Source: Candidatus Helarchaeota archaeon (GTDB lineage Archaea; Asgardarchaeota; Lokiarchaeia; Helarchaeales; RDOG01). Taken from it: a DNA stretch of 64,000 nt. Made by a program: the position numbers and the translations under genes. The notes beneath the pieces are model-generated. The model searched no databases. It worked only from the letters and a program-made list of their open reading frames with translations, and was not told the DNA's origin. Positions 8,310 through 37,043 of the stretch are shown piece after piece (the stretch's first letter is position 1; each line of letters starts with the position of its first letter). The DNA is taken from positions 160,001-224,000 of the forward strand of contig JAHPZH010000007.1 in the NCBI GenBank assembly GCA_019058315.1, in the 5' to 3' direction.

Positions 8310-8951
8310 TTATTTTATTTGGATTGGGATATAATAAACAATATTATTTTCATTTATTGAATTAATGAAATTGAATTCTAATAATTTTTTGATATGTGGT
8401 CTTATTTGACCATGATCTAAATTTAAAATTCTCTCTAGTTCAGAAAGTCTTAATTTCTTATGGAGTTTAATTTGATGATAAATTAACTTTGTTCTTAAAT
8501 TCTTAAATAATAGTATTTCCATATCAAATTCTTCATTTGTATCAGATAAAAAATAAACTTTTTTATTCATGAATTTCTTACTTCGAAGGAAATCGAACAT
8601 TTCTAAGTATTCAAGATTTCTGAACGTTTCATAAGCACCAAGATTAAGTTCTTCCCTAATCTCCCTTACATGAGTTCCAGGATGTTCCAATATGTAATAA
8701 TATATTCTCCTACGATTTTTATTATTTAATATATTTTTCTTTGTTAAATTAAGACCTTCAATTAAATATTTCTTTTCAAATAGTTGATTTAAAGCAATGT
8801 AAATTTCTTCTTTTGAATAACTCAATTGAGAAACTGCTTCTTCAAATAAATTTTCAGCTCTTATTGCCTTCTTTTTTCCTCCTAAATCTGTCGCAATAAT
8901 TAAAATTAGTCTTTCAATAACCCCAAGCTCTTCTAAAAACAAATTAAACAC
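8310..8951 (-). CDS. Winged-helix (ArsR-like, tandem wHTH) transcriptional regulator
   Basis: NKNRRRIYYYILEHPGTHVREIREELNL and a second HTH LRLSELERILNLDHGQIRPHIKKL. Confidence 0.7.
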   Translation of the reverse strand: MFNLFLEELGVIERLILIIATDLGGKKKAIRAENLFEEAVSQLSYSKEEIYIALNQLFEKKYLIEGLNLTKKNILNNKNRRRIYYYILEHPGTHVREIREELNLGAYETFRNLEYLEMFDFLRSKKFMNKKVYFLSDTNEEFDMEILLFKNLRTKLIYHQIKLHKKLRLSELERILNLDHGQIRPHIKKLLEFNFINSINENNIVYYIPIQIK

Positions 8952-9059
8952 TCGTTTATTGTTATTTAGAATTGGAATTTTCCATTTAAAAAATTTTATG
9001 TAATTGCAATAGTTGAAATCTTATTTTACTAAAATAAAGAGATAAAAAAATAATTAATT

Positions 9060-10730
9060 TTATTTCTCAAGATTTTCTACTTTTCTTAACCATTCATCAA
9101 TTTTTTCAGTTTTGATTGTGACAAGATCTCTTAAAAGTAGTTCTTTTTCTTTTTCTGTTAGATTTTTAATAGCTTTCACTCTTGAATATATATCTGATGA
9201 TAATAATTTAAACGATTTTACCATGATATTTTCTTTATCAACAGAATAAGTGCTTTCATTGTTTCTATTTTCATCAGACTGTTTTAAAATATCTAATATT
9301 TCTTTTGCATTTAAAGTTGATTTGGATTTAGATCCATACATTGTTGTGGGTTCTTGAATTAAAGCCTTTTCTTTAGTTTTTATTATTTTTCTAATTTCTT
9401 TAGCACCTAAATATACTCCCTTAGTAGATTTTTTTTCTATTGACCTTTTAGATTCTGATTTATCCTTATATTTATACACGGCTATTGCTGTGAACGTAAT
9501 CGAGACAGCTGCAATACTACCGATGATTATAATTATAATTATTGTATAATCGTCACCTGGTATCACAATCCATGGAAAAGGACTATCAATTATATTTACG
9601 GTGAATTGATAAAAAGATGAGAATCTGGCATTTCCATCTGTGTCGTTGACGAATATTGAATATGTTATTGTTCTACCCGTGGCATTTGGAGGAATAATAC
9701 TCGTAAAATTCCAATAGCCATCTGTGGTATTCCCCGAAATAAGTGTCATGTCGAAATATTTGAATAAACCGTATAGGTCTGAATAAAGCCCGACATGAGA
9801 AACTCCAATATTATCTTTGATTCGAACTGTAATATATAATTGATCAAAAATCTGAAAATTTTGTTTATTTATCCAAATATCTAGTATTTTTGGTATTTCA
9901 CTTTCAGTTAGATTATAGACAAATTCTACTTGGTTAATGAGGAACTGTTTACATGTAGTAGTCATATAATCATCCCTAAAATAACCCTCATATGACCATA
10001 ATAAAATTCTAATATTATTTTCATACCCTTTATAATGTCCAAAATTCACATGATCACTTTGAATATTCTCTGCATATCCTATAATTTCAAAATCAGCATC
10101 AGAAGTACTAAAGGTCCTACTCGTTCTCATATAAGTAGTATCTATTGCAAATGTTAATGGTAGATTATAGGGATTGTTTAATACAGGATGACTACCTTGA
10201 GAAGATAACATCCTCTGAGCATCACTTCCACTCACCACTATACTTCCATAATTTGAATAAGACAATCCTAAAGCAAATACGAATAAACTTCCGCCCCTAC
10301 CTCTTGCTATTATAGGTTTTCCAATATCTGCTATTCCTTCTGCTTCAGTTGTAGTCCAAGCATGAGGGACGTAACCCTCTTGACAATCACCAATTAGTAA
10401 TACATCGTAAGGATCAGCTAATGACGGATCATTGAGTAACTCTTGATAATGTAATGTGCTAGTTTCATAACTTCCAAAATCTCTTAATATACGTAACCAA
10501 TTCACATCATGATCCATTGAAATATAGGAAGTATTAACAAATAAAATATCTAAATCACTAGCTTTTATCTCTAAGCGTTGATCTTCCTCATCAGTTTTGG
10601 CATACAAATTTGGGAATGAAAGGTTACTCGAATTATATATTGAATAACTGATTATAATTGCGCTGAAAATGAAAATAGCTACCACTATTAAATAAATTCC
10701 TTTATTATATTTATATCCCATTAGATTCAC
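9060..10730 (-). CDS. Membrane-anchored extracellular protein with cytoplasmic C-terminal tail
   Basis: N-terminal hydrophobic helix; beta-rich Ig-like segment (YITVRIKDNIGV...YSIFVNDTDGN) with N-x-S/T sequons; TM IIIIIIIGSIAAVSITFTAIAVY; charged tail. Likely start is ATG near 10721 after SD AGGTGA. Confidence 0.65.
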   Translation of the reverse strand: MNLMGYKYNKGIYLIVVAIFIFSAIIISYSIYNSSNLSFPNLYAKTDEEDQRLEIKASDLDILFVNTSYISMDHDVNWLRILRDFGSYETSTLHYQELLNDPSLADPYDVLLIGDCQEGYVPHAWTTTEAEGIADIGKPIIARGRGGSLFVFALGLSYSNYGSIVVSGSDAQRMLSSQGSHPVLNNPYNLPLTFAIDTTYMRTSRTFSTSDADFEIIGYAENIQSDHVNFGHYKGYENNIRILLWSYEGYFRDDYMTTTCKQFLINQVEFVYNLTESEIPKILDIWINKQNFQIFDQLYITVRIKDNIGVSHVGLYSDLYGLFKYFDMTLISGNTTDGYWNFTSIIPPNATGRTITYSIFVNDTDGNARFSSFYQFTVNIIDSPFPWIVIPGDDYTIIIIIIIGSIAAVSITFTAIAVYKYKDKSESKRSIEKKSTKGVYLGAKEIRKIIKTKEKALIQEPTTMYGSKSKSTLNAKEILDILKQSDENRNNESTYSVDKENIMVKSFKLLSSDIYSRVKAIKNLTEKEKELLLRDLVTIKTEKIDEWLRKVENLEK

Positions 10731-10872
10731 CTATTAATTTAAAGAGATTGGAAATCATCTATCTATAATCCATTCACTATTCCCATATAATAAATGGATA
10801 TGGTCCAGTTTTATCCGAATTATCACAAAAAAAATGATTTGATATTAAAAAAGGCAAATTTTTTTTAAATTT

Positions 10873-11568
10873 TTAAATTACATCATGCGAACGAATTTTA
10901 TCTAATTCAATAAGATTTTTCGATAAATCTTCTCTTATTTTTGATAAATCTTCTTCTCTATCCGCTAAAGCGTTCTTTTTAGTAAGTAATTCGATATTAA
11001 TTTTACTTAAATCCTCTTGAGCGACTTTTAAATTCTTAGTCAACTTCTCGATATTCTTTTCTATTTTTTCTCTTTTTTCAGATGTTTTATCTAATTTTTG
11101 AAATGTATCTTTTTCCTTGGCAAGCTCAAATTCTTTCTTAGAAATCTCATCTCTTAAACTTGATATCTTTTTTTCTATTTTTCCAATTTCTTCTCTATCC
11201 CCAGTTATCGCAATCTCCATTTGGGCCACACTTTTACGAACTTTAGAAATTTCAAGCTCTAATTCCGAAATTTGTTCATTAAGAAGTGCTTCTTGCATAC
11301 TTTCGGTAATTTCGTCTTCTGTAAATTCTATAATTCCTGCATTTTTAATTTCGTTTTTTTCATTAACCTTATTCCGAATTTTTTCGGCTAATTTCTCTCT
11401 TATTTTGGCGGATTCTTCTTCCATCTTTGCCAATTTCTCTTGTTCTTTTGCAATTTTGAGTTGGACTTTAATTAGTTCAAGTCTAGATTCAGCGGCGATA
11501 AGTTCTTGCTTGGCCAAATCTTTGTTTCGTTGTGCTGCTTGCTTAAGTTTCTGAATTTCTTCATCCAT
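10873..11568 (-). CDS. Long coiled-coil protein
   Basis: Continuous E/K/L-rich heptad pattern over 231 aa. Confidence 0.7.
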   Translation of the reverse strand: MDEEIQKLKQAAQRNKDLAKQELIAAESRLELIKVQLKIAKEQEKLAKMEEESAKIREKLAEKIRNKVNEKNEIKNAGIIEFTEDEITESMQEALLNEQISELELEISKVRKSVAQMEIAITGDREEIGKIEKKISSLRDEISKKEFELAKEKDTFQKLDKTSEKREKIEKNIEKLTKNLKVAQEDLSKINIELLTKKNALADREEDLSKIREDLSKNLIELDKIRSHDVI

Positions 11569-11659
11569 TTTGTTGGTTCTTCCTTATAATTTTTTTTGAC
11601 TCTTTGTATTTTTATAATCAAAGATTATTAATTTTTCTAAATAGTTTTTAAATTGGTTA

Positions 11660-12052
11660 TTAGATATTGGAATTATATAAAGTTACTTTGCTTGCCATTA
11701 TTTCTATAAAATCTCCAACTTTTATCAAATCTGTTTTTTTCACATCCAGCATTATTGAACTTGCAGGTGATAAGGATATTACTATTACCCCATCATCATA
11801 AATTTGATCAATTTTACCATGTATTATTAAATTATTGCGTTGGTAATCAATTAAAGGTTTATTTTCTGTAATTTTATTAATATTTTCTCCCCATAGTAAT
11901 TTATCATTTATATTAAATTCAACAAAATATTTAGATCCTACATTTGGTGTTTCTCCATCCCACTTGGCTGCCCCAGAGCCAAATTTGGTTTCAAACCATA
12001 TCAAGATCCTATCTTTACTTCTTTCAATAATACGCTTAACTATTATTTTCAT
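11660..12052 (-). CDS. Hypothetical beta-rich protein
   Basis: 130 aa ORF co-directional with neighbours; no family recognised. Confidence 0.6.
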   Translation of the reverse strand: MKIIVKRIIERSKDRILIWFETKFGSGAAKWDGETPNVGSKYFVEFNINDKLLWGENINKITENKPLIDYQRNNLIIHGKIDQIYDDGVIVISLSPASSIMLDVKKTDLIKVGDFIEIMASKVTLYNSNI

Positions 12053-12080
12053 ATATTTTTCACTATTTTTTCGATTTTAA

Positions 12081-12413
12081 CTAATATAACTCCCTTCTCT
12101 TTTTTTCAAATTTTTTAATAGTATCTACCTTCCGAATAATGTTTGGTCTCCATTGGGTTGCTTTTACAATTGTTCTTAGCATAACACCATTTTTACCAAT
12201 AAGTAGACCTGGTTTTCTGGCTTCAATTATTACTTCACCAAGAGCTTCATCAAACTCAATGCTTGTAATTCCTGCATTTGGTGGGCTTAATTCAATAATC
12301 TTTTTTTCAGCTTGTTCAGGCGGTAATCTATGCTTGAAATCTGAGTATTTATCTATTCTTTTTCTAATTTTTTTAGACATTTCTTTAATTTGTTTTTTAA
12401 AATCCTCTTCCAA
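12081..12413 (-). CDS. Stand-alone KH domain resembling the N-terminal KH region of aCPSF1/FttA
   Basis: IKEMSKKIRKRI...LPPEQAEKKIIEL.PPNAGITSIEFDEALGEVIIEARKPGLLIGKNG..LR.I.K.TQWRP follows the aCPSF1 KH pattern; no MBL/beta-CASP part. Confidence 0.8.
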   Translation of the reverse strand: MEEDFKKQIKEMSKKIRKRIDKYSDFKHRLPPEQAEKKIIELSPPNAGITSIEFDEALGEVIIEARKPGLLIGKNGVMLRTIVKATQWRPNIIRKVDTIKKFEKKRRELY

Positions 12414-12538
12414 TTTTATTTTCCTCGTTATTGTATTTTCATATAAGAATTAGTTAAAATGATAATTAATATCTTCCAAATTAGTAATTCTCTATATTTT
12501 TCTTTATAAAAATATTAATACAAAATAAATTATTACAT

Positions 12539-13072
12539 TTAGACATTTGCTGCATTTAATAAAGAATGGTATAAGAGCTTTGAAATAGAATTCAAATAAA
12601 TTTCAAATTCATCTTTAAATATTTTAAATAAATTTCTATAAGGATGTTCTAATATTTCTGGATTACTTTTAACCCAATTGCATTTTGGATCAAGTACAAA
12701 GTAATATTCTTTTTTTGAAATTTGCTTAAAATTTCTTATTGGAAATATTTTACACATCACAGGTTTATTCTCATGAATAGAACAACCTGAATTCTCACTA
12801 TAAAAAGGGCAAGGGAGGTTTAAAAAGTAATGAAATGTAAATTCTTCTTTGTTTAAAGGATTTACTATTTTTTCTTTGGTAATTTTTAATTTTAAATTAC
12901 GTTTTCTTGCCTCTAACTCTAAAAAGTTCTTCTCATCATTAGTTATTTGTAATTTCTTAAAAAGAGAAACACAACATCTATTTTTACATTGCTTGCATGA
13001 ATATGAATTTGAATTATTATTAATCGAATGTAAATTAATTTCAGTGAAATAAGTCTTGAAATTATTTAAAAT
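12539..13072 (-). CDS. YkgJ-family (CxxCxxxCC) Zn/Fe-S cluster protein
   Basis: The frame of track ORF 12539..12760 is open up to 13075 and encodes SCKQCKNRCC...PCPFYSENSGCSIHENKPVMCKIFP. No ATG/GTG/TTG upstream of the motif; ATT at 13072 or TTA at 13069 follows SD GGAGCTGA. Confidence 0.75.
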   Translation of the reverse strand: MLNNFKTYFTEINLHSINNNSNSYSCKQCKNRCCVSLFKKLQITNDEKNFLELEARKRNLKLKITKEKIVNPLNKEEFTFHYFLNLPCPFYSENSGCSIHENKPVMCKIFPIRNFKQISKKEYYFVLDPKCNWVKSNPEILEHPYRNLFKIFKDEFEIYLNSISKLLYHSLLNAANV

Positions 13073-13168
13073 TGGTCAGCTCCAACCGATGAAATTTTTT
13101 ATAACTATTATTTGATTATTATAATAAAATTGTTTAAAATTTGTGAATTAAAAATTTAAGTGAAATGA

Positions 13169-13507
13169 TTGCATTTATTTGTATACGGGACTTTAACAGA
13201 CGAGGTATTTCTCCACCGCGTAACTAAAAGACCATTCGGACACTTTCAAATTATTGAAGCCAAACTACCCGAATATAAAAGAGATTCATCAATAAAAATA
13301 TCAAAGTGTGACCATGATTCAGCAGTTAATGGCCGATTAATTTTAAATCTAGATAAAAATGATCTAGATCTTCTGGATTATTACGAAAGTTGTAATACTA
13401 ATAATGCTGAGTCAGATCAAAATAATTGGTATAACCGGAAAATAGTCTCTGTAATTACAAGTGATAATAAAACGTTTAATGCATACGTATACATTCCCAA
13501 TTTTTAG
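13169..13507 (+). CDS. Gamma-glutamylcyclotransferase (AIG2-like) family protein
   Basis: LFVYGTL, VNGRLI, LDLLDYYE, YNRKIVSV, AYVY. Confidence 0.88.
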   Translation: MHLFVYGTLTDEVFLHRVTKRPFGHFQIIEAKLPEYKRDSSIKISKCDHDSAVNGRLILNLDKNDLDLLDYYESCNTNNAESDQNNWYNRKIVSVITSDNKTFNAYVYIPNF

Positions 13508-13534
13508 AGTTTATAACATTTTGGTGATTAATTA

Positions 13535-14860
13535 ATGTCCATCTTCAAAAAAAAACCACTTGGCAAATGTCCTCGCTGCGGAAATGTAACACATGCAAGA
13601 TGGATTAAATTAGGTAGAGAAATTAAATGTGAAAATTGCGATTTTAAATTAAGGGTTATTGTAAAAAGAAAACAAAATTTAGAGGATAAAAAGAAGCCTT
13701 TGGGGATTGTTGATACAATAGAAGAAGCTTATGGAATTTCTATGGGTATTGAAATTGAAACTTATACCATTAGAATTTCAGCTGGAAAATATTCGATTGG
13801 ATATGACGATGTAGTATACCCTAAAGAGCAAGTTTTTGAAGATGGAGAAATATTTACCCAAGATCTTACCATTGGTTCTGAATTTAATAGTCCAGTTTTT
13901 TATCAACTTTATAATGCGTATTTTCGCTTGAAAGCCAGTCTAAGAAAATATAATGTATTCCAAGATAAAACTGAAGAAAATGTGGAAAAACGAATCTGTT
14001 TTATGGGAACATGGTTGGATGCGCCGGCGGCAACACACTTTCATATTGGATTTGGTAAAGATGGAATAGGCGAACAAGATGCGGAGTATATTGCGCAGCA
14101 TGTTCATAGTCATTTACCTTTTTTGATAGCATTATCCGCAAATTCACCAATTTTAAATAATGAAATTACTCCAATTGCCTCGAATAGGTTAAAAGAATTT
14201 CCATATTGTAATCCCATTGCTATAAAAGATTTCTTTAAAGAATACGAGAAATTAAGTGATTATCATTTTACAGAAATGAATTATAATACCTTTCCTGGAA
14301 GTGGGGAGGATACTAAACCTCCTACCCTTGAAATTAGAGTAGCTGACTCAAATATTCCCGAATATTGTATTGCTTGTCTTGCAATTATTCAAGCTATCGT
14401 ATTAAAAGCTATTAGAAAGAAAAAAGGTAAACCCGTTAAACCCCCTAACATATGTGATTATGACAATTACATTGAAGCACGAAATAATGCAATTAATGAT
14501 GGATCAAATGCAATATTATGTTGGAACAACAAACCAGCGAAAGTTCCAAAATATATTGATAAATTCTTTTATTTCTATAAAAAAGAATTAGAAGAAATCG
14601 AAATTCCACCTAAAATTTTAGATGTTTTTAAATATTTAAAATCTGGAGTTAATATGGCTGATATGATTCGGGAATCATGTTCTAAAATGAAGGAAAAAAA
14701 TCCAGCTAATTGGGAGAATGAGTTTGCTAAACAATATGTTTCAGCATTAGAACAAAATTTAGAAGGAAATGATCTCGAAAACTTCGCAGGGTATTTAGGT
14801 ATTAAACTTCCAAACATTTCCAAAACGATTTTAGGAGAAACATCATTTTATTCTCCTTAA
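13535..14860 (+). CDS. Carboxylate-amine (glutamate-cysteine ligase, GCS2-like) ligase with N-terminal zinc ribbon
   Basis: CPRC...CENC ribbon; MGIEIE, SEFNSP, THFHIG, LPFLIALSANSP, ASNRL, TLEIRVADS. Confidence 0.82.
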   Translation: MSIFKKKPLGKCPRCGNVTHARWIKLGREIKCENCDFKLRVIVKRKQNLEDKKKPLGIVDTIEEAYGISMGIEIETYTIRISAGKYSIGYDDVVYPKEQVFEDGEIFTQDLTIGSEFNSPVFYQLYNAYFRLKASLRKYNVFQDKTEENVEKRICFMGTWLDAPAATHFHIGFGKDGIGEQDAEYIAQHVHSHLPFLIALSANSPILNNEITPIASNRLKEFPYCNPIAIKDFFKEYEKLSDYHFTEMNYNTFPGSGEDTKPPTLEIRVADSNIPEYCIACLAIIQAIVLKAIRKKKGKPVKPPNICDYDNYIEARNNAINDGSNAILCWNNKPAKVPKYIDKFFYFYKKELEEIEIPPKILDVFKYLKSGVNMADMIRESCSKMKEKNPANWENEFAKQYVSALEQNLEGNDLENFAGYLGIKLPNISKTILGETSFYSP

Positions 14861-14901
14861 ATCATAACATTTTTTCCTCTAATTCTTGTTTTTCGTGTGA
14901 A

Positions 14902-15525
14902 TTATTCTTTTATGAATAAAAACGCCAGAATAAAAATCCATGACTGATAGGCATATATTGAAATCCGTTCAAATAATCCCAATAATTCAATATTATTCAT
15001 CATCAATACCGAAGTTAAGCCACCAAAACTAGCCATAATAATCAGTGTAATTATTGAATATAATCTAAATGATTTCCACTGTTTCTCACTGTAAAGACCT
15101 ATCCCAATCATTGGTATAGCTAGTACTATTAATATAATGTTTAATCCTGTGAGAATTATATGCATTGTTCCAGGGAAAGTTCCGGGCATAGGAATAGCAG
15201 TAAAAGGATCCATTGGAAAAATACTCCCCGATAATGCTGAAAATATTCCCAGAATCATAATGAATATGCCACCTAAGAATATTAATTTACTCTGCTCAAA
15301 TTTATAATATGTAATTACTCCAATTCCAAAAATAACTAACATAATTGCAGAGATAACGAAAAGCGAACTTAATAAGTAAGTATTTTTAGAACCAGCTTGA
15401 GTTAATTCACTCACCGCATTTATAATTGGACTATAGCCTTGTGTAATGATACTACCGATAATATCATTTAATAAAAATACGATGGGACCTAAAATACCAC
15501 CATAAAAGAGAAGTTTTTTATCCAT
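14902..15525 (-). CDS. DUF998-family membrane protein
   Basis: GYSPIINAVSEL, IFPMDP, GTMHIILTG, GLFERISIY; about 6 TM helices. Confidence 0.8.
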   Translation of the reverse strand: MDKKLLFYGGILGPIVFLLNDIIGSIITQGYSPIINAVSELTQAGSKNTYLLSSLFVISAIMLVIFGIGVITYYKFEQSKLIFLGGIFIMILGIFSALSGSIFPMDPFTAIPMPGTFPGTMHIILTGLNIILIVLAIPMIGIGLYSEKQWKSFRLYSIITLIIMASFGGLTSVLMMNNIELLGLFERISIYAYQSWIFILAFLFIKE

Positions 15526-15670
15526 GTCTTTATCATCACCGAATTATTATTGCAAATAATCTCGTTGCTTTATAAAATCAATGTTTTTATATCTTATTAA
15601 AAATATAATTAGATAATTTTATTTATATTTATTGATAATTATTGATAGTACTATTTTTGGTGGAGATATT

Positions 15671-17950
15671 TTGAAAAAAAGTAGCGATCAGACTAAAGAA
15701 ACGATATTAACCATGCTTTCAAACCCACTACGCTCACAAGTTCTGAAATTTCTAAGTCAACAAAGCCCATTATCATTTACGGATATAATGGAAAAATTAA
15801 AAATGGATCCCTCCACAGATGCTGGTAAATTTGGATACCATCTTAGAGCTTTGAAAGATACCCAACTAATCAGTGGTGGATCCGAATCGGGTTATAGGTT
15901 AACCAAAATTGGAGAAAAAGTAGTTGAGTTTTTATGGACTTTAGGTGATTTGATAAAATCAGAAGCTCTTGGAGAAATCCAGGTTAGAACATCAAGATAT
16001 TCAGTTGAAAAATTTGACAGAAATAAGATAGCCCTAGCTCTACAAAAAGAAGCAAATATTCCTAGAGATCTTGCTGAAGATATTTCAAAAGAAGCTGAAG
16101 AACGATTGATTAATTCAAAAATTAAATATTTTACCGCACCCTTGATACGTGAATTTGTTAATTTTATCCTTTTAGAAAGAGGTTTAGAAAATTATCGACA
16201 TGCTCTTACAAGATTGGGTCTTCCACCATATGATGTTAAAGAATTAATAAAATCACAAAAGAGCATTTCAAATCCAACATTTATAAAAAGAATAGCAGGT
16301 GATGCTATTCTGGAACAATATTTATTATTAAATGTTCTGGACCATAAAATAGCCGATGCTCATTTAAGTGGTGATATTTTCATTCCAAATGCTAATTATT
16401 TCATCTTAAGACCAAATTCTGTACAACATGATGCACGAATTTTTTTCAGTGAAGGTCTTCCAAGTATGGGCTCTCTAATTGCAATAAGCCCTCCAAAGAG
16501 CTTTAGAACCGCTTTAGGCATTATAGCAAAAATTTTTAACATTTCAAATAGCGCAAGCGACCAATCCTTTGATCATTTTAATGTATTTTTAGCCCCTTTT
16601 ATAAAAAATTTATCACAAGACGATATAAAGAAAAATATTCGAATTTTTTTGGAAGATATCGGCTATCAATTCGATTCCTCAGGAATAAATATTAATTTAG
16701 AGTTTTTAATACCTTCATATCTTCAAGATAGTCCAGCAGTTGGTCCCGATGGTAAGGTTAATGGTATTTATGGGGATTATTTGGAGGAAACACAATTATT
16801 ATTATCGTTACTATTAGATGTGCTAATAGAAGGAGATATCAAAGGGCGTCCCTTTCTTTTACCAAATCAAATTCTTAAAATTCGTCCTGAGGTATTAGCT
16901 CGTGATGAATATAAACCATTATTAATGAAAGTCCATGAGTTAATTCTAAAATTTGGAACACCTTTTTTAGTGAATGCAACGAAAGATTGGCAAACTAAAA
17001 ACGTTAATTTAACAGGAGGTCTAGATCGACTCGCGGCTACATGGAAAGAAGTAGAAGTAGATACTTTACGGACTGGAAATTTAGATTGGGTCATTATTAA
17101 TCTCCCTAGAATTGCTTATGAATCGGAAAATGACGATGATAAATTTTTTGATTTATTAGATACTAGATTAGATTTATCTTATAATGCTTTAAAGCAAAAA
17201 AAAGAAATAATTGATATAAGAATGAATGAAGATAGACTACTACCTTTCTTATCTGCTTCGGTAAAGGGAGAGCCTTATTTTCGAATTGAAAATGCCTCTT
17301 TTTCTATTAGCTATCTAGGTTTACCCCAAGCAGTTAAAATACATACGAATTCAAAAGTATCTGATCATACAGGTTTTAATTTCGCAAAACGAATATTGGT
17401 ATATTTAAATAAATTTTCAAAGGAATCTAGTGAGAAATCAGGTCTTAGGTTTACAATAAAGCAATCAATTTCAAATGGATGGGCCTTCAAACTGGCGGAA
17501 TTGGATAGAGAGTATAATATCTGGAGAAAACGAAAAATAGATGCTAAGCATCAATTCGACTTTTATACTGCAGAAAATTTATTCTCCTCAACCTCTATTC
17601 CGATGAAAAAAAGAATTCAATTAGAAGGAGAATTTCAACAGTATCTTAAAGGCGGTCATATGTCTTTAATCTCAATTGATAGTCCATCATTTGATAGTAA
17701 AAATCTATTGGAGATTACTCGTGATATTTGTAATTCTTCTATAGGAATATTTGGATACGTTCATAACCTTACTTATTGCTCTTCATGTGGTATTAGTTTA
17801 AACGGAATTCATGAAAAATGCCTTAAATGCAGCTCTGCAGGGACTAATATTAACCATTATAGCCGTCAAGTTGGACCATATAAAATTATTTCTCCACAGA
17901 ATAATATTATTATGAATAATATTAAAAATCGGCAAATTTATTCGGCATAA
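15671..17950 (+). CDS. nrdD: HTH + ATP-cone + class III ribonucleotide reductase (NrdD)-like fusion, catalytically degenerate
   Basis: ArsR-like HTH (LSNPLRSQVLKFL...GKFGYHLRAL); ATP-cone (VRTSRYSVEKFDRNKI...TAPLIREFVN); NrdD motifs ADAHLSGDIFI, LRTGNL, INLPRIA; C-terminal CxxC-CxxC. TTG start at 15671 follows SD GGTGGAGA (track start 15632). Confidence 0.85.
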   Translation: MKKSSDQTKETILTMLSNPLRSQVLKFLSQQSPLSFTDIMEKLKMDPSTDAGKFGYHLRALKDTQLISGGSESGYRLTKIGEKVVEFLWTLGDLIKSEALGEIQVRTSRYSVEKFDRNKIALALQKEANIPRDLAEDISKEAEERLINSKIKYFTAPLIREFVNFILLERGLENYRHALTRLGLPPYDVKELIKSQKSISNPTFIKRIAGDAILEQYLLLNVLDHKIADAHLSGDIFIPNANYFILRPNSVQHDARIFFSEGLPSMGSLIAISPPKSFRTALGIIAKIFNISNSASDQSFDHFNVFLAPFIKNLSQDDIKKNIRIFLEDIGYQFDSSGININLEFLIPSYLQDSPAVGPDGKVNGIYGDYLEETQLLLSLLLDVLIEGDIKGRPFLLPNQILKIRPEVLARDEYKPLLMKVHELILKFGTPFLVNATKDWQTKNVNLTGGLDRLAATWKEVEVDTLRTGNLDWVIINLPRIAYESENDDDKFFDLLDTRLDLSYNALKQKKEIIDIRMNEDRLLPFLSASVKGEPYFRIENASFSISYLGLPQAVKIHTNSKVSDHTGFNFAKRILVYLNKFSKESSEKSGLRFTIKQSISNGWAFKLAELDREYNIWRKRKIDAKHQFDFYTAENLFSSTSIPMKKRIQLEGEFQQYLKGGHMSLISIDSPSFDSKNLLEITRDICNSSIGIFGYVHNLTYCSSCGISLNGIHEKCLKCSSAGTNINHYSRQVGPYKIISPQNNIIMNNIKNRQIYSA

Positions 17951-17978
17951 ATGGTTAAAAAAGGTTCAAGGTTAGGAT

Positions 17979-18320
17979 TTAAGTTAAATCTAATTTAATA
18001 AATTCATATTCTCTGATAAATTTACGTTGTGTAATATAGCTATATGCCTCGATGACCATTTTATTTTCATAAATTCTTCCATCATATTCAACTATACCAC
18101 TAATACTAGTCGTTGTAAATTTTATCCGAATACTACTTAAAATGAAATTACCTTTACCTACTGATTTAACAGAATCTTTAACAAACCATTTTTTCATTGA
18201 TTGAGGAGATGTTTTCGAATAAGCGGTAATTACCGTCCCATCTTCAAAAAATCTAATATAATGACTATAATCCTCCAATTTACTCCTATAAATTCCATCG
18301 AATCTTAACAAATTGCCCAA
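17979..18320 (-). CDS. Hypothetical protein
   Basis: 113 aa beta-rich ORF (LRFDGIYRS...HYIRFFEDGTVI) filling an intergenic gap. Confidence 0.6.
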   Translation of the reverse strand: MGNLLRFDGIYRSKLEDYSHYIRFFEDGTVITAYSKTSPQSMKKWFVKDSVKSVGKGNFILSSIRIKFTTTSISGIVEYDGRIYENKMVIEAYSYITQRKFIREYEFIKLDLT

Positions 18321-18490
18321 CTCTAATTTTAGATTGAACTAAATAAGAGTCAAAATCAATAAAATATTGCATTTCCAAATTTTAAAAAATTTATATTTTA
18401 ATTATTACTTAACGTAAAATAGTAAATGAAGAAATTTGGGGAGTTAAAATGGAAAAATGGTTACTTCAGTTATTTAAAAGGATGATTTAA

Positions 18491-19702
18491 TTGACTTATC
18501 GAAATAGAAGACATAGAATGTATTTAGAATTCGGAGGACCAAAAATTGCCAAAAAATTTGAACTTGCTCAAGTACGTGGAATGGATGAAATTGAAAATGG
18601 AAAAGTTTCAATAATTGGTTCAGATTTAAGAGATTTGGAACAAGGAAAATCGTATCCAATTGGAATTCTTATTGAAATTGCTGGAAAAGAAGTTAAAAAA
18701 GAGTTAGAACCGATTTTTGAGTGTAGAATTAAGGATTTCACAGATAGTATTGGTAATATGTTTTATGTATATCATCGATCAGATATTTGGTTTAGATTCT
18801 CAACATTTGTCTATGAAAGAGGATTCAACTCTCTCAAAGTGTGGGGTGAAATGTTGATTGCTTCTTATCAAAGGGAATACGAAAAAATTATTGAAAAAAT
18901 CCAAATAACTTTTTTTACTGAAGAGAATAAAGTTAATGAATGGCATGAAAAAGCCACTAAGATTTATTGTTCAAGAGATGACCAAGTAAAATCTCTTTCA
19001 GACGAGAGAGTTGATACTTTTTTTGGGTGTGCTTTGTGTAATTATATTGTTCCAAATCATTTTTGTATAATCACACCAGACAGTTGTGGTCTATGCGGTT
19101 CAATAAACTGGATTAATGCAAAAGCAAGTTTTGAGCTGGATCCAAAGGGTCCAATTTTCTTCATCAGAAAGGGACAAAGTATAGATACTATTAGTGGTGA
19201 ATGGAGCGGAATTAATGAGATCATTAAGGCAAGAACCCTGGGTCAAATTGAAAGAATTCATCTTTACACGATTCTAAGCCCATTTAACCATACTAGTTGT
19301 CATTGCTTAGAGGCAGTCGCCTTTTATATACCTGAGGTTGATGGGATAGGAATTTTAAATAGAAATTTTAAAGTGCCCGCTATTAATGGATTGCCATTTT
19401 CAACTATGTCAAGTGTAATTAGGAAAGGAGAACAAAGTTATGGTTTTGTTGGAACAGCAATAGGACAAATGCGCTCCCCAAAATTTTTACAAGCTGACGG
19501 TGGATGGGATAGAATTGTTTGGATAACTAATCATGTAAAAGATCGCATTAAAGATGATATATCGATTGAAATAGTTAATAAAATCGCAACTGAATCGGAT
19601 GTAACTAATTTAATGGAATTAAAAGATTTCCTTATATTAAATAATCATCCCATAGTTAAAAAATGGACAAAAGAAATATATAATTCTAATTTTGAGGAGT
19701 AA
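18491..19702 (+). CDS. cdhC: Divergent acetyl-CoA synthase (ACDS beta subunit) paralog
   Basis: EFGGPK, GCALC...HFCIITPD...LCGSINW, HTSCHCLEAVAFYIPEVDG, NGLPFSTM, SPKFLQADGGW; TTG after SD AGGATGA. Confidence 0.85.
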   Translation: MTYRNRRHRMYLEFGGPKIAKKFELAQVRGMDEIENGKVSIIGSDLRDLEQGKSYPIGILIEIAGKEVKKELEPIFECRIKDFTDSIGNMFYVYHRSDIWFRFSTFVYERGFNSLKVWGEMLIASYQREYEKIIEKIQITFFTEENKVNEWHEKATKIYCSRDDQVKSLSDERVDTFFGCALCNYIVPNHFCIITPDSCGLCGSINWINAKASFELDPKGPIFFIRKGQSIDTISGEWSGINEIIKARTLGQIERIHLYTILSPFNHTSCHCLEAVAFYIPEVDGIGILNRNFKVPAINGLPFSTMSSVIRKGEQSYGFVGTAIGQMRSPKFLQADGGWDRIVWITNHVKDRIKDDISIEIVNKIATESDVTNLMELKDFLILNNHPIVKKWTKEIYNSNFEE

Positions 19703-19770
19703 ATGTTAACGGGATGGTTGTTCATAAGAAACTAGATACTTAAATTCGATAAATTGTTGAATTAATTATT

Positions 19771-20388
19771 GTGATTTTAGATGATGAATTGCTTGTTCCA
19801 CGTAAATTATATATAGATGCCGGAGTTCACTTTGGAACTGCCAAAAAAACTTCAAATATGGAACCATATATTTATAAAACTATTAATACGGGCAAAAACC
19901 AAATTAATCTTATTGATATTCGAAAAACAGCTGCCAGAATTCGAGTAGCAGCAAAGTTTATTTCTAGATACCACCCAAATAAAGTTCTAGTAACTTCAAA
20001 GCGAAGATATAGTCATCAAGCAATAAAAAAATTTTCAGAAATAATTGGTACAAAATATATAAAGGGGGAAATTAAACCGGGAACTTTAACAAATTATTCA
20101 TCTAAGCATTATATTGAAACGGATTTATTAATTATAATTGATCCTAAAAAAGATGTTGATGCGATAAATGAATCTTCTATTTCCAAAATACCAATAATAT
20201 GTCTGTCTAATACAGATAATAACTTCATAAATGTCGATTTGGTGATTCCGGCAAATAATAGAGGAAGAAAAGCATTAGCATTAATTTTTTGGATTTTAAC
20301 AAGGCAAGTTCTTTTGGAAAGTGGTGAAATAAAATTTTTTAGCGAATTTAATTTTCCAATTTCCGACTTCCTTTCCCCCTTACATTAA
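19771..20388 (+). CDS. rps2: 30S ribosomal protein uS2, divergent copy
   Basis: AGVHFGT, RIRVAAKFI, PGTLTN, VDLVIPANNRGRKALALIFWIL. Confidence 0.85.
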   Translation: MILDDELLVPRKLYIDAGVHFGTAKKTSNMEPYIYKTINTGKNQINLIDIRKTAARIRVAAKFISRYHPNKVLVTSKRRYSHQAIKKFSEIIGTKYIKGEIKPGTLTNYSSKHYIETDLLIIIDPKKDVDAINESSISKIPIICLSNTDNNFINVDLVIPANNRGRKALALIFWILTRQVLLESGEIKFFSEFNFPISDFLSPLH

Positions 20389-20472
20389 ATTTTATAAATA
20401 TAGTTCATATTAAGTAGAAAATCTAAATATTTGAATTAAAAAATGATTAAAGGAATATAAAAAAGGGATTTT

Positions 20473-20886
20473 ATGGTCAAGTCAAAGAAAAATCTAGATA
20501 TTTATGGTCTCATCGTAATAGATCGTTCAGAAATGACAATAGCCACATTATCTGGTGGTAAAAAAAATATTATAAAGATAATGAGTGCAGCCAAACCATT
20601 TAAACGATTGGAGCGTTGCGAAATACAGAAAAATTATAGACCCCTTATTGAACAAGCTACACAGGAGTTCTTCATTCGTGCAGGAGAACACATTAACAAT
20701 CAATTTTTAAGTCTACAATTAAAAGGGATAATTATAGGGGGAGGTGGACCAACTAAAAAATATTTCGTAAAAGGTGATTATTTAGATAATCGTTTAAAGG
20801 AAAAAATAATTGCTATAATCGATATTGGTTATTCTGGTGAGCAAGGTATTGACGATTTAATTAAAAAAGCCAAATTAATATTATAA
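20473..20886 (+). CDS. Stand-alone aRF1/eRF1 domain 2 (middle domain) lacking GGQ
   Basis: YGLIVIDRSE.TI, LIEQATQEFFIRAGEH, LKGIIIGGGGPTKKYF.KGDYLD.RL..KII.IIDIGYSGEQG. Confidence 0.8.
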   Translation: MVKSKKNLDIYGLIVIDRSEMTIATLSGGKKNIIKIMSAAKPFKRLERCEIQKNYRPLIEQATQEFFIRAGEHINNQFLSLQLKGIIIGGGGPTKKYFVKGDYLDNRLKEKIIAIIDIGYSGEQGIDDLIKKAKLIL

Positions 20887-21224
20887 AATGGCGATAATTA
20901 TAAATAAAGGAAGTAAATGTAAACTAGTGCGGTACTAGTCTAATAAATTTAAAAATTAATTACATTTTTTATGAGATTTTTTCTTCTATTTATTCTAAAA
21001 TATTTCAATTTCGAAAATTCGCATTTCTTGTATAAATGCTTATTAAATTCCTTAAAAAATTGTGGGGTTTTTATTATTTTTTAAAAATTCACTATTGTTT
21101 TGAATGGAAAAAGAGTTAGATTAATTAAAAAAATATCAATTTAATTAGATAAATTTATCAAAAAAAGTTTAAATAATAGAAAAACCCATTATGATTATCA
21201 AATTCAATTTAATTTTTAAAAGGT

Positions 21225-24053: not shown

Positions 24054-24992
24054 ATGCAATGTAGGGGTATAAATATCGATCCAAATATTATGAAAGAGGT
24101 CTTGAAACAAATTAATAAAGACAGAATCTCGTCTGAATTAATTTATAATATAATTAGAGATAAAGGATGGGATTTTAAAAGGAAAGAATTATATTTAATT
24201 TCAAAATTAAGAATAGAGTTTGAGGATCCAGAATTTTGGTATTATTTGGGTCTATTTTTCTTTGAAAATTATGAATTGGATAAAAGCCAAGATATATTTT
24301 TAGAAAATGCGTTATATTGCTTTAATAAACCATTTGAAAACAATAAAAATAAAGGTAAAACCATTTTATGTGATGCTTTTGATAATCCAAAAGATATTTT
24401 TTCCTTATCATATTCAGAATATATTGAATTTTTGAACGAATCTCTTGATCATTTGATTGTGATTTATAATAAACCATGCTTTTACGAAGGTTTTTCTTTA
24501 CTTGAGGTTATTCCAAAGAAACCAGAAATAGTCGAGAGGTTTGAGGTTATTATTACAGCTGAATATAATGAACTTATTCAAGATAAAGAAAAAATATTTG
24601 GTGAACGATTACGTCAAATTCAATTTGAAAATAAATTATATGGGATTTTAAAAATATATAAAAAAATACGGCTCTCTGAACTGGCAAAAAAATTAGATTG
24701 TGAACAATCCTATTTAGAAGAAACTTTAGAAAAACTTGTTTTAGAAGAAAAAATTAATGGAACCATAAGAAATCAGTTTTTAACAATTACTAAATTACCT
24801 GAAGATCAAGAAATAATACCTATTATTACAATTAAAGAAGGTCAATGTGCTATATGCAGGGAGGAAATCAAAGAAGAATCATTAACTTGCTCAAATTGCT
24901 CTTCAAAATTCCATAAAAGCTGTTTTTCAAAATGGATTGAAAAAAGCGAATTATGTCCAGTTTGTCAAAAAGAACTTGAAATATTTGAATAA
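24054..24992 (+). CDS. Helical repeat + PCI-type winged helix + RING (C4HC3) protein, putative E3 ligase
   Basis: TPR-like PEFWYYLG...ALYCF; WH YKKIRLSELAKKLDCEQSYLEETLEKLVLEEKINGTI; CAIC-x10-CSNC-x4-HKSC..KW-x6-CPVC. Confidence 0.78.
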   Translation: MQCRGINIDPNIMKEVLKQINKDRISSELIYNIIRDKGWDFKRKELYLISKLRIEFEDPEFWYYLGLFFFENYELDKSQDIFLENALYCFNKPFENNKNKGKTILCDAFDNPKDIFSLSYSEYIEFLNESLDHLIVIYNKPCFYEGFSLLEVIPKKPEIVERFEVIITAEYNELIQDKEKIFGERLRQIQFENKLYGILKIYKKIRLSELAKKLDCEQSYLEETLEKLVLEEKINGTIRNQFLTITKLPEDQEIIPIITIKEGQCAICREEIKEESLTCSNCSSKFHKSCFSKWIEKSELCPVCQKELEIFE

Positions 24993-35518: not shown

Positions 35519-36961
35519 TTGAAAATGATTGCAATATTACTCACATTAATAGTGTTTATAGTTGTTATTGTTACAATAGCAACAGAAAAGATGAATAGGG
35601 CAGTTATCTCTTTACTTGGTGCCATTTTTCTGTTTTTATTCCTATTTTTTTACACCCAAAACATTAGCAATACATTAGCATTTCCTTGGAAGTTCAATTT
35701 TGAAAACCTTAGCAATTTATTGATATTAATACTAGATATTAAACCCTTTGAAAAATTGTCCTTATTATTATTTCAGAATGATTATCTTTCTCCGTTTCAA
35801 TTCTTTAATATAATTGATTTCATGGTTGGAACAAGAGAAGATAATTTTAATAATCTACATTCCATCATCTTAATTTTAGGCATCATGATTCAAGTAGGTA
35901 TTTGCCATGAAGCAGGCGTATTTCAATTTGTAGCACTAAATCTTGTTAAAAGTTCAAAAGGTGATCCTAACAGATTACTTCTTATCTGCTGTCTTCTTTC
36001 AGTATTTCTTTCTTCCATTATTAATAATATTTTAACTGTTATTGTCTTAATACCTCTAACAATTATGATTTGTAGAATGCTTAGTATCAATCCAGTACCT
36101 TACATATTGAGTGAAGCTATTTTAGTAAACATTGGTGGCATCATATTTCCCATTAGTTCTGTTCCGAATGTGCTAATTAGTGAATCAGGTGGATTAAATT
36201 TTATACATTATTTAATTTATATTGCTTGGTTCGCCATAATTCTTTTATTGGTTACTTTTTTGATATTCCAATTATATTTTAAGAAAAAATTAAAAGTCCC
36301 GGAAAGCAGATTAGTCAGAGTCCTAGAAGAATTTAATCCATGGAATTTCGTTCCTAATAAACAACTTTTTTATAGTTCAATATTTAGCTTGATTATTACT
36401 TTTATATTAATAATTGCTATTCCAACTTTCACTGATATAATTGCTTTGACTTTAGGGTTATTACTAATAATTATTAGTAAGATAAATGCTAGTGATGCTA
36501 TAAAAACCATTGATTTTGAATTAATCCTTTATCTATTGGGTATTTTTATAATCACTGGTTGTATGGATTATGTTGGTATAATTGATTCAATTGGCTTCGC
36601 ATTAAAGCACATTACAGGAGGTTCACCGCAAATTACTGCTCAAGTATCACTTTGGATACCTGCATTTCTAAGTAGTTCAATAGATAATATTCCTATTACC
36701 AGTGCTTTAATTCCTATCATGCCAATTTTAACATTTAATTTTAATACTTATCAATCTCAAGTTTCATATTTTGCTCTTGGATTCGGAACAAACCTTGGCG
36801 ATAATCTCACACCTATGGGAGACAACATTCTAGTGATGAATTTAACAAAACAACATGGAATAGAATTAAAATTTAAGCAATTTTTTAAAATTGGATTTTT
36901 AAGCACTATAATTCAACTTTCAGTAACCAGCTTTTATCTTGCCATTTTAATGTCTTTTTAA
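35519..36961 (+). CDS. ArsB/NhaD (SLC13 / P-protein-like) ion transporter
   Basis: ATEKMNRAVISLLGA, SSIINN, NIGG..FPISSVPNVLI, SSSIDNIP, GTNLGDNLTPMG. Confidence 0.88.
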   Translation: MKMIAILLTLIVFIVVIVTIATEKMNRAVISLLGAIFLFLFLFFYTQNISNTLAFPWKFNFENLSNLLILILDIKPFEKLSLLLFQNDYLSPFQFFNIIDFMVGTREDNFNNLHSIILILGIMIQVGICHEAGVFQFVALNLVKSSKGDPNRLLLICCLLSVFLSSIINNILTVIVLIPLTIMICRMLSINPVPYILSEAILVNIGGIIFPISSVPNVLISESGGLNFIHYLIYIAWFAIILLLVTFLIFQLYFKKKLKVPESRLVRVLEEFNPWNFVPNKQLFYSSIFSLIITFILIIAIPTFTDIIALTLGLLLIIISKINASDAIKTIDFELILYLLGIFIITGCMDYVGIIDSIGFALKHITGGSPQITAQVSLWIPAFLSSSIDNIPITSALIPIMPILTFNFNTYQSQVSYFALGFGTNLGDNLTPMGDNILVMNLTKQHGIELKFKQFFKIGFLSTIIQLSVTSFYLAILMSF

Positions 36962-37043
36962 TGGCTGTAAAAGAAATTAAATTGTATTGATGAATAAAAA
37001 TATAAAATCTTCAACTACACTTTTTATTACAGATTGATGAAAA

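Follow-up and report, generated by a model that had tools for sequence, protein, structure and literature searches.

We analyzed a stretch of 64,000 nucleotides (hereafter the window) from the genome of a Candidatus Helarchaeota archaeon (GenBank assembly GCA_019058315.1), in which a region of about 9 kb, positions 12081 to 20886, carries five homologues of core-machinery genes. The genome, labelled G000, is a metagenome-assembled genome (MAG) of 5.79 Mb in 12 contigs with approximately 30% GC, and the window corresponds to C7:160001-224000. The most similar database proteins bear the names Helarchaeota, Lokiarchaeota or Promethearchaeota, in line with a Helarchaeota-like Asgard archaeon. An initial annotation, made from the sequence alone, had described the five homologues as altered or truncated with intact reading frames; scans with Pfam and NCBIfam confirm the homologies and their coordinates, and all five frames are open. 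Four of them, here called KH', CdhC', uS2' and aRF1M', are copies of the genes for aCPSF1, CdhC, uS2 and aRF1, and the fifth encodes an NrdD-like protein. As already described, CdhC', uS2' and aRF1M' are consecutive and co-directional, and their gaps of 68 and 84 bp stay below 90 bp. The locus is organized as follows.

10873–11568, minus strand: open reading frame (ORF) of 231 amino acids, apparent ancestral left anchor, with a homologue directly beside the NrdD-like gene in the relative G001
11660–12052, minus strand: o130, a protein of 130 amino acids, encoded on the strand of KH' and 28 bp downstream of it
12081–12413, minus strand: KH', a stand-alone second KH region of aCPSF1 without nuclease part, 110 amino acids
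13169–13507, plus strand: gamma-glutamyl cyclotransferase-like (GGACT) accessory gene, upstream inserted block
13535–14860, plus strand: GCS2/YbdK-like carboxylate-amine ligase, upstream inserted block
14902–15525, minus strand: DUF998 membrane protein, upstream inserted block
15632–17950, plus strand: NrdD-like protein of 772 amino acids, with a winged helix-turn-helix (wHTH; ArsR-like/DUF7347), a borderline ATP-cone and a Cys-less NrdD core
17979–18320, minus strand: o113, a protein of 113 amino acids, first gene of the downstream inserted block
18491–19702, plus strand: CdhC', the A-cluster core of the acetyl-CoA synthase (ACS) beta subunit, 403 amino acids
19771–20388, plus strand: uS2', a full-length second uS2, 205 amino acids
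20473–20886, plus strand: aRF1M', a stand-alone aRF1 middle domain, 137 amino acids
21604–23023, plus strand: pyrB-pyrI, apparent ancestral right anchor

Comparison with relatives, which are a sample of draft MAGs, points to an ancestral order in which the 231-amino acid gene and the NrdD-like gene are divergent and the latter is followed by pyrB. In G001 a homologue of 10873–11568 directly and divergently precedes the NrdD-like gene, and in G002 (C141:1-12094) the NrdD-like gene is followed after approximately 770 bp by pyrB and then by carA and carB homologues. Measured against this order, G000 carries two inserted blocks, one on each side of the NrdD-like gene: an upstream block (11660–15525) with o130, KH', the GGACT gene, the GCS2-like ligase and the DUF998 gene, and a downstream block (17979–20886) with o113, CdhC', uS2' and aRF1M'. 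The NrdD-like gene is present in the relatives searched without the other four homologues, and KH', CdhC', uS2' and aRF1M' were found only in this lineage. The region had been called an island of displaced copies, which fits these four lineage-specific genes, but not the NrdD-like gene, a conserved resident of the locus.

The junctions between the NrdD-like gene and o113, between o113 and CdhC', and between CdhC' and uS2' are spanned by short sediment-metagenome contigs from three other studies, which are 95–98% identical to the window. Because these independent contigs span the junctions, the arrangement is real and no assembly chimera. One contig of metagenome run X3 departs from the window close to the uS2' 3' end. 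Joints that appear to skip the downstream block (X4, 18006–20949; X6, 18089–21122) or the whole island (X6, 11577–21150) were left aside, because on one side the match amounts to only 21 letters within AT-rich sequence; no use was made either of the lower contig depth that these runs show over aRF1M'.

Origin of the four copies and what they retain

The initial annotation had proposed a search for canonical copies elsewhere in the genome, and a higher-scoring one was found for each of the five genes (tblastn, whole genome):

C10: canonical aCPSF1, 638 amino acids, 922 bits, beside a proteasome subunit
C6: canonical NrdD, 708 amino acids, 489 bits
C5: canonical CdhC, 479 amino acids, 703 bits, inside a cdhA-epsilon-C-D operon
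C6: canonical uS2, 211 amino acids, 268 bits
C5: canonical aRF1, 444 amino acids, 505 bits

Identity to the canonical gene of G000 itself is 58% for KH', 55% for CdhC', 54% for uS2' and 67% for aRF1M', and is lower to the genes of relatives; at 54–67% identity to the parents, the folds of the copies are not in doubt. In phylogenetic trees, three copies have the canonical gene of G000 as their sister, namely aRF1M' (support 98/96; branch length 0.54 versus 0.027 for the canonical gene), uS2' (80/79; 1.33 versus 0.28) and KH' (62/67; 1.47 versus 0.027), and CdhC' falls inside the clade of its order without a settled position, nearest to its own CdhC (1.02 versus 0.13). The branches of the four copies are 5 to 50 times longer than those of the canonical genes. 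These trees support aRF1M' well as an in-paralogue, and in-paralogy is the best but not exclusive reading for KH', CdhC' and uS2'.

Synonymous divergence (dS) from the parent genes is 0.5 for KH', 1.0 for uS2' and approximately 1.9–2.0 (saturated) for CdhC' and aRF1M'; because these values differ, the copies are suggested to have arisen in more than one event, at different times. A retro-copy origin was considered and rejected, as a single reverse transcriptase on C3 is too little for it and no DNA-level trace could remain at such divergence. Beside the canonical uS2, at a distance of two genes, lies a split copy of TnpB (IS605-family OrfB/Cas12f-like; C6:149903-151174). It is approximately 92% identical to an intact copy of 423 amino acids at C3:1385544-1386815, and because of this high identity TnpB-type elements have probably been active recently in G000.

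Of the two single-domain copies, KH' had been described as a lone aCPSF1 KH domain, and indeed matches the aCPSF1/FttA model (TIGR03675) only at positions 43–133 of 631, with 79 bits against a cut-off of 580; it corresponds to residues 46–136 of canonical aCPSF1, without the metallo-beta-lactamase and beta-CASP nuclease. aRF1M' consists of the eRF1_2 domain only (canonical residues 167–295; positions 131–261 of 403 in TIGR03676, 122.9 bits versus a cut-off of 234.7), with the N and C domains absent. The loss of its GGQ motif had also been recognized correctly: canonical HHAGGQSQRRYER aligns gap-free to RLERCEIQKNYRP, which has RCE in place of GGQ. Changes at invariant columns are concentrated in this loop (8 of 10, versus 3 of 25 elsewhere; P = 3e-4). 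The RR after the loop reads KN; this Arg pair has been linked to large-subunit binding (PMC6514570), and aRF1M' has lost one of its two members. No hibernation factor was found near aRF1M' in the Pfam and NCBIfam scans.

CdhC, or AcsB, is the A-cluster subunit of CO dehydrogenase (CODH)/acetyl-CoA synthase. CdhC' scores above the cut-off of TIGR00316 (428.6 bits; cut-off 355.95) and spans canonical residues 26–414, missing approximately 25 N-terminal and 65 C-terminal residues. It retains all four Cys of the [4Fe-4S] cubane (GCxxC...HxC...LCG) and both Ni-binding Cys, and the altered Cys-Gly-Cys that had been pointed out reads C-H-C (SCHC versus canonical SCGC). The sister-species orthologue described below likewise conserves C-H-C and all cubane Cys. 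CdhC' has no cdh neighbours and lies outside the cdh operon. Two further observations concern cdh genes. A third, far more diverged CdhC paralogue (C5:642230-643585; 451 amino acids, 36% identity) has lost one Ni-binding Cys (Ni motif SCRY), lies outside any cdh operon and occurs only in G000 among 21 genomes searched. The CODH alpha gene of the cdh operon is duplicated on another contig (C3:67481-69868 and C5:1303791-1306184, 83% identity).

uS2' is a full-length second copy and not the sole uS2 of the genome: it matches TIGR01012/PF00318 at model positions 2–193 of 196 with 216.6 bits (cut-off 211.5; canonical uS2, 268). With 54% identity to the canonical protein and its long branch, it can be called drifted, the term used initially, and 15 of its 60 class-invariant columns are changed. 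Among 20 relatives searched, 19 have one uS2 and for G002 none was matched; a scan of JGI metagenomes with uS2' returned matches only at 22–23% identity. A structure prediction of a CdhC'–uS2' complex scored 0.00 in both runs, which counts neither way.

Selection, conservation and chance

A uS2' orthologue, 92% identical at the protein level, is present in a sister species on a 3.9-kb contig of GCA_048887025.1 (JBHLKF010000994.1) and on a Logan contig. A partial CdhC' adjoins it, with 92.3% DNA identity to window positions 18712–20372. Downstream of uS2' the sister species carries a gene for a protein of 158 amino acids, a TPR protein and then the orthologue of a gene on C11 of G000. The initial annotation had asked whether the genes co-occur in relatives, and this holds for the CdhC'–uS2' pair only, but not for the other copies. 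When 5.8 billion protein clusters were searched by word index, aRF1M' matched nothing of 75–240 amino acids other than itself, and for KH' only itself and three sequences at 42–54% identity were found at comparable length. The 158-amino acid protein (JBHLKF010000994.1:1740-2216, minus strand) has no orthologue in G000; its last approximately 58 residues are a KOW domain of the Spt5/NusG type (TIGR00405, 34 bits, below the cut-off) and its N-terminal part is unrelated, so that it is possibly another excerpt of the core transcription machinery.

Between the two species, the ratio of nonsynonymous to synonymous substitution (dN/dS) is 0.30–0.43 for CdhC' and 0.11–0.26 for uS2', and the binomial probabilities for values below 1 are P = 7e-5 and P = 1e-7, respectively. 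An SMC-like gene on the same sister contig, taken as a control, gave 0.01–0.02. CdhC' and uS2' are under purifying selection across two species and are not decaying pseudogenes. A dN/dS near 1 without expression had been named as an outcome that would contradict the initial proposal, as had the absence of further copies in the genome or of any co-occurrence in relatives; for CdhC' and uS2' the ratio is not near 1, and none of these outcomes was clearly obtained.

No orthologue of aRF1M' or KH' was found, and for this reason the case for selection on them is based on comparison with the parent genes (with saturated dS for aRF1M') and on survival of the open frame. Such pairwise estimates are rough, the more so with the saturated dS of CdhC' and aRF1M'. 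For aRF1M' the dN/dS to the parent is approximately 0.11. KH' is the weakest case of the four, with a value of 0.66 (0.33/0.51) and amino-acid changes that fall almost entirely on its own branch. In neutral simulations, which started from the parent gene, added substitutions until the amino-acid identity equalled that observed and ignored indels, the probability of an open frame was <1e-6 for CdhC', 5e-4 for uS2', 0.03 for aRF1M' and 0.06 for KH'. Class-invariant columns are kept more often than variable ones in uS2' (75% versus 46%), CdhC' (68% versus 46%) and KH' (84% versus 43%).

How unusual the clustering is was assessed with a crude set of 4854 ORFs, compared all-against-all by blastp in windows of 13 genes. 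In G000, 19% of the ORFs have a paralogue at an identity of at least 45%, and the 13-gene stretch 8310–20886 contains five dispersed paralogues, a number equalled or exceeded in 295 of 4842 windows. Fragment copies, each no more than half the length of the parent, make up 3 of these 13 genes, which is the maximum in the genome (genome-wide permutation P = 0.09). The paralogue density at the locus is ordinary for G000; only the density of fragment copies stands out, and their clustering is marginally beyond chance.

The unusual feature of the locus is the identity of the parent genes. Other fragment copies in G000 belong to expanded families (Ras-like GTPases, LRR, TPR, pentapeptide, TnpB and JAB), and the five ribosomal-protein families tested (uS7, uL3, uS12, uL6 and uS11) are single copy. 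No second uS2, aCPSF1 KH or aRF1 M domain, nor a comparably close second CdhC, was found in the 20 to 40 relatives searched. To our knowledge, surviving paralogues of universal single-copy translation and transcription genes are almost never seen in prokaryotes. Eukaryotes have many such paralogues, and Asgard archaea are their closest relatives.

One proposal of the initial annotation was a hotspot that captures and recycles housekeeping domains. The two inserted blocks are in line with it, as is a third, partial copy of two genes just upstream, but the clustering itself is marginal. This third copy consists of the following:

8310–8951, minus strand: partial copy of the N-terminal HTH part (approximately 206 amino acids) of a 703-amino acid protein at C3:608650-610761, 55% identity
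9060–10730, minus strand: ORF of 556 amino acids whose C-terminal half resembles the C-terminus of a 969-amino acid protein beside that C3 gene, 39% identity

Together they form a truncated segmental duplicate that borders the same zone. Its source is a pair of neighbouring genes (C3:605535-610761), and the C-terminal part (39%) derives from a DUF7743 protein.

The NrdD-like gene and other genes of the window

The NrdD-like protein scores below the cut-off of TIGR02487 (281.1 bits; cut-off 326.35; canonical copy, 489) and has a borderline ATP-cone (PF03477, 25.7 bits versus a cut-off of 25.8) and an HTH in front of the NrdD core. It had been called a dead NrdD, and both active-site Cys are indeed absent: the thiyl-radical loop HSQCCRLIL of the canonical protein aligns to NLTGGLDRL, and FTSISC, with the second Cys, aligns to ININLE. 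All HTH-bearing family members examined share this loss. At the position of RxxGY it reads SRQVGPYK, retaining the Gly and not the Tyr. This motif is not conserved across the family; the G002 orthologue stops before it and for G001 the alignments disagree.

Full-length orthologues occur in the same family and order (G001, 56%; G005, 49%; G006, 53%; G002, 43%), and an exhaustive HMMER search returned 404 representatives at E <= 1e-30. The approximately 50 aligned members with an N-terminal HTH extension of approximately 100 residues, counted as representative clusters at 50% identity among those aligned, all lack the CCR/GCR Cys motif and RxxGY; the canonical NrdDs in the same alignment keep both. 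By name, the family comes from Helarchaeota, Promethearchaeota, Thorarchaeota and Bathyarchaeota, and most of its HTH-bearing members are annotated as active anaerobic ribonucleotide reductase. By these comparisons the NrdD-like gene is an old, conserved resident of the locus that belongs to a widespread family of catalytically dead pseudo-enzymes, and not a stray copy. Annotation of the Cys-less proteins as active reductase, in records of Helarchaeota, Promethearchaeota and Thorarchaeota, can mislead metabolic reconstructions.

The position at the head of a pyrB, carA, carB run in G002 and, before the insertion, beside pyrBI in G000 suggests that the family regulates pyrimidine synthesis. Because of this conserved position and the analogy with NrdR, the most likely role of the protein is that of a transcription factor that senses nucleotides and controls the adjacent pyr genes.

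The island is flanked by ordinary chromosomal genes, encoding an ADP-forming acetyl-CoA synthetase, PyrB-PyrI, an epimerase, a RING and PCI protein and TPR proteins, and its base composition is that of the rest of the genome. The proteins that o113 and o130 resemble are unnamed small bacterial hypothetical proteins, which is a lead only. The GCS2-like ligase is patchy, being found among the relatives only in G005 (42%). It has a zinc-ribbon-like start (CxxC...CxxC) and the GGACT gene lies just upstream of it; the listed differences between the window and metagenome strains in this gene (13535–14860) are mostly at third codon positions. Further downstream, 24054–24992 encodes a protein of 312 amino acids in which a RING-H2 finger comes after a PCI domain, a domain order that is eukaryote-like and typical of Asgard genomes, and 35519–38483 holds two tandem genes of 480 amino acids with 65% mutual identity.

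Interpretation and comparison with known systems

We favour, with a probability of about 0.6, the reading that a plastic, lineage-specific accessory zone around the conserved NrdD-like gene retains repurposed duplicates, rather than a co-evolved dormancy or decoy system. DNA was inserted on both sides of the resident gene, bringing dispersed duplicates of the genome's own, highly conserved core genes. The copies have stayed open under real but relaxed purifying selection, which is seen across species for two of them and indicated by open frames and by the pattern of conserved columns for the other two, and the parts that catalysis or entry into the parent complex requires have been removed or rewritten. 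The four would now be retained young paralogues that serve as non-catalytic binding modules or alternative subunits: uS2' is a putative alternative small-subunit protein, aRF1M' an M-domain predicted to lack stop-codon recognition, peptidyl-tRNA hydrolysis and the binding of aEF1-alpha via the C domain, CdhC' presumably a free Ni-Fe-S protein outside the acetyl-CoA decarbonylase/synthase (ACDS) complex, and KH' a candidate RNA-binding module without nuclease. What they appear to share is a permissive location, and a common function would be only conjectural. A second uS2 kept under selection in two species, together with an aRF1 M-domain with an erased loop, provides a dated and traceable case of duplicate retention and, if the copies are expressed, would allow tests of ribosome heterogeneity and of the control of termination within an Asgard lineage.

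The other proposal of the initial annotation was that all five genes form one selected set, either a dormancy switch or decoy and dominant-negative proteins acting on termination, translation, dNTP supply and carbon fixation. The short gaps between the co-directional CdhC', uS2' and aRF1M' agree with such a module, as do the adjacency of CdhC' and uS2' conserved under purifying selection in the sister species, the specific removal of catalytic and assembly elements from folds that are otherwise kept, and the link by gene neighbourhood between bacterial stand-alone Gln-less aeRF-1-type domains and hibernation factors (PMC6514570). However, the NrdD-like gene occurs without the other four in all relatives searched, aRF1M' and KH' were found in no other genome or metagenome protein set, uS2' is followed by a different gene in the sister species, and the copies differ in dS to their parents. 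Moreover, KH' lies on the opposite strand, 6 kb away and in a separate insertion block, and no hibernation factor, toxin or defence gene was detected in the Pfam, NCBIfam and PHROG scans. Selection on CdhC' and uS2' is what stands of this proposal, but the five genes are not one set, and nothing shows a joint action on these processes or a link to dormancy or antiviral defence; we consider a single module improbable. Also unlikely, in our view, is that the blocks are degraded cargo of a mobile element or virus carrying host core genes, inserted next to the NrdD-like gene, which is of a type known as attachment site. The insertions directly abut an nrdD-type gene on its two sides, and nrdD has been reported as a Tn7-like attachment site in archaea, including a Promethearchaeota genome (bioRxiv 10.1101/2025.07.27.667033). 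Each block contains a small ORF resembling bacterial hypothetical proteins, the very long branches are typical of element-borne copies, and the CdhC'–uS2' pair has other 3' neighbours in the sister species. Against this, the island contains no transposase, integrase, TnsA/B/C, TniQ, capsid or terminase by Pfam, NCBIfam and PHROG scans (the latter returned one GGACT match and one weak match only), and no flanking direct or inverted repeats beyond AT-rich noise. A search for TniQ found no match in G000, and the same search matched no control genome either. Scans of IMG/VR with uS2' and aRF1M' found no relatives, there is no tRNA in the window and no Rfam family was found, the base composition is like that of the genome, and the copies stem from the lineage's own genes.

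That the copies are functionless relics, pseudogenes in waiting whose frames are still open by chance, would fit the change of 25–32% of class-invariant columns in uS2' and CdhC', the dN/dS of 0.66 for KH' with nearly all change on its own branch, the singleton status of aRF1M' and KH' in public data and the only mildly improbable open frames of these short copies (0.03 and 0.06). We hold this to be a poor explanation, as the between-species dN/dS of CdhC' and uS2' is significantly below 1, the joint neutral probability of four open frames is on the order of 1e-12 (indels ignored), invariant residues are preferentially retained, and aRF1M' has a dN/dS of approximately 0.11 to its parent outside the rewritten loop. 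Finally, the apparent paralogues could be orthologues from another organism, wrongly binned or assembled. The estimated contamination of the MAG is 6.6%, and the identity of the copies to the canonical genes (54–67%) reflects a distance comparable to that between related families. Yet two of the copies are excerpts of a single domain instead of complete genes, the tree strongly supports aRF1M' as the sister of this genome's aRF1, and the flanking NrdD-like and pyrBI genes are syntenic with relatives and lack a further copy of that kind in G000. The junctions are spanned in independent metagenomes, and the contig, of 275 kb, has a typical composition; binning or assembly error is thus very improbable. 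Second copies of marker genes such as uS2 could themselves add to the contamination estimate of this MAG.

Several points weigh against the accessory zone as we describe it. KH' may be evolving nearly neutrally, and no orthologue of aRF1M' or KH' was present in the genome and metagenome protein sets searched. The sister-species evidence consists of one 3.9-kb MAG contig and one 1.7-kb Logan contig, and the estimated contamination of G000 applies here as well. In-paralogy is weakly supported for uS2' and KH', and the tree does not resolve CdhC'; transfer from an unsampled close relative is possible. The argument for different ages leans on partly saturated dS. We infer the proposed molecular roles from what each copy has lost.

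A bolder extension of the accessory-zone reading, which we put forward as speculative and rather unlikely, is that domain-precise excerpts and whole copies of the most conserved core machinery have been turned into new regulators. uS2' would then define a distinct class of small subunits, and aRF1M' and KH' would compete with aRF1 and aCPSF1 for the sites that these bind and so tune translation and transcription termination. As a separate point, the family that joins an HTH and an ATP-cone to a dead NrdD would be an undescribed archaeal nucleotide-sensing transcription factor, widely mis-annotated as active reductase. If true, this would be a young and traceable archaeal case of regulatory complexity arising from information-processing duplicates.

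Among known proteins, CdhC' resembles CdhC/AcsB in scoring above the family cut-off and in keeping the four cubane Cys and both Ni-binding Cys; it differs by the His for Gly in Cys-Gly-Cys, its place outside the cdh operon and the lack of the N-terminal 25 residues and of the C-terminal acidic linker and basic tail of archaeal CdhC. Bacteria have zinc-independent second copies of the ribosomal proteins L31, L33, L36, S14 and S18. Like these, uS2' is a second, diverged, full-length copy under purifying selection and outside the usual context, but the protein is uS2, the host is an archaeon, there is no evident metal-motif switch, and the case is known here from sequence.

Asgard genomes, whose expansion is described as duplication-driven, contain many duplicates; their tandem paralogues have a median dN/dS of 0.37, and metabolic functions are enriched among tandem duplicates (PMC13247210). 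G000 is likewise large (5.8 Mb) and rich in paralogues, and the dN/dS of 0.1–0.4 of the copies matches this median. The parents here are, in contrast, universal genes of information processing that normally occur once, and two of the copies reproduce a single domain only. The NrdD-like protein is comparable to NrdR, the bacterial repressor of ribonucleotide reductase genes, which consists of a Zn-ribbon and an ATP-cone (PMC12176259; PMC9110341): in both a DNA-binding domain, predicted for the NrdD-like protein, is joined to an ATP-cone, which in ribonucleotide reductases is the module that senses nucleotides, and the NrdD-like gene lies beside nucleotide-synthesis genes. Unlike NrdR, it combines an ArsR-like winged HTH with a whole dead NrdD core, and its neighbours are pyrB or carAB, not nrd genes.

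The closest parallel to aRF1M' is provided by the stand-alone aeRF-1-type domains. Several baeRF-1 families are stand-alone and without the catalytic Gln, which Dom34/Pelota likewise lacks (Burroughs & Aravind 2019, PMC6514570). aRF1M' is, in the same way, a middle domain without catalytic Gln and without codon-recognition or C-terminal domain. It differs in being a recent, independently derived and lineage-specific excerpt within the aRF1 clade of its own order, outside those old clades, and the likeness is functional only. Gln-less stand-alone domains of this type have been proposed to occupy the ribosomal A site in translational shutdown, and in bacteria they are tied by gene neighbourhood to ribosome hibernation factors (PMC6514570).

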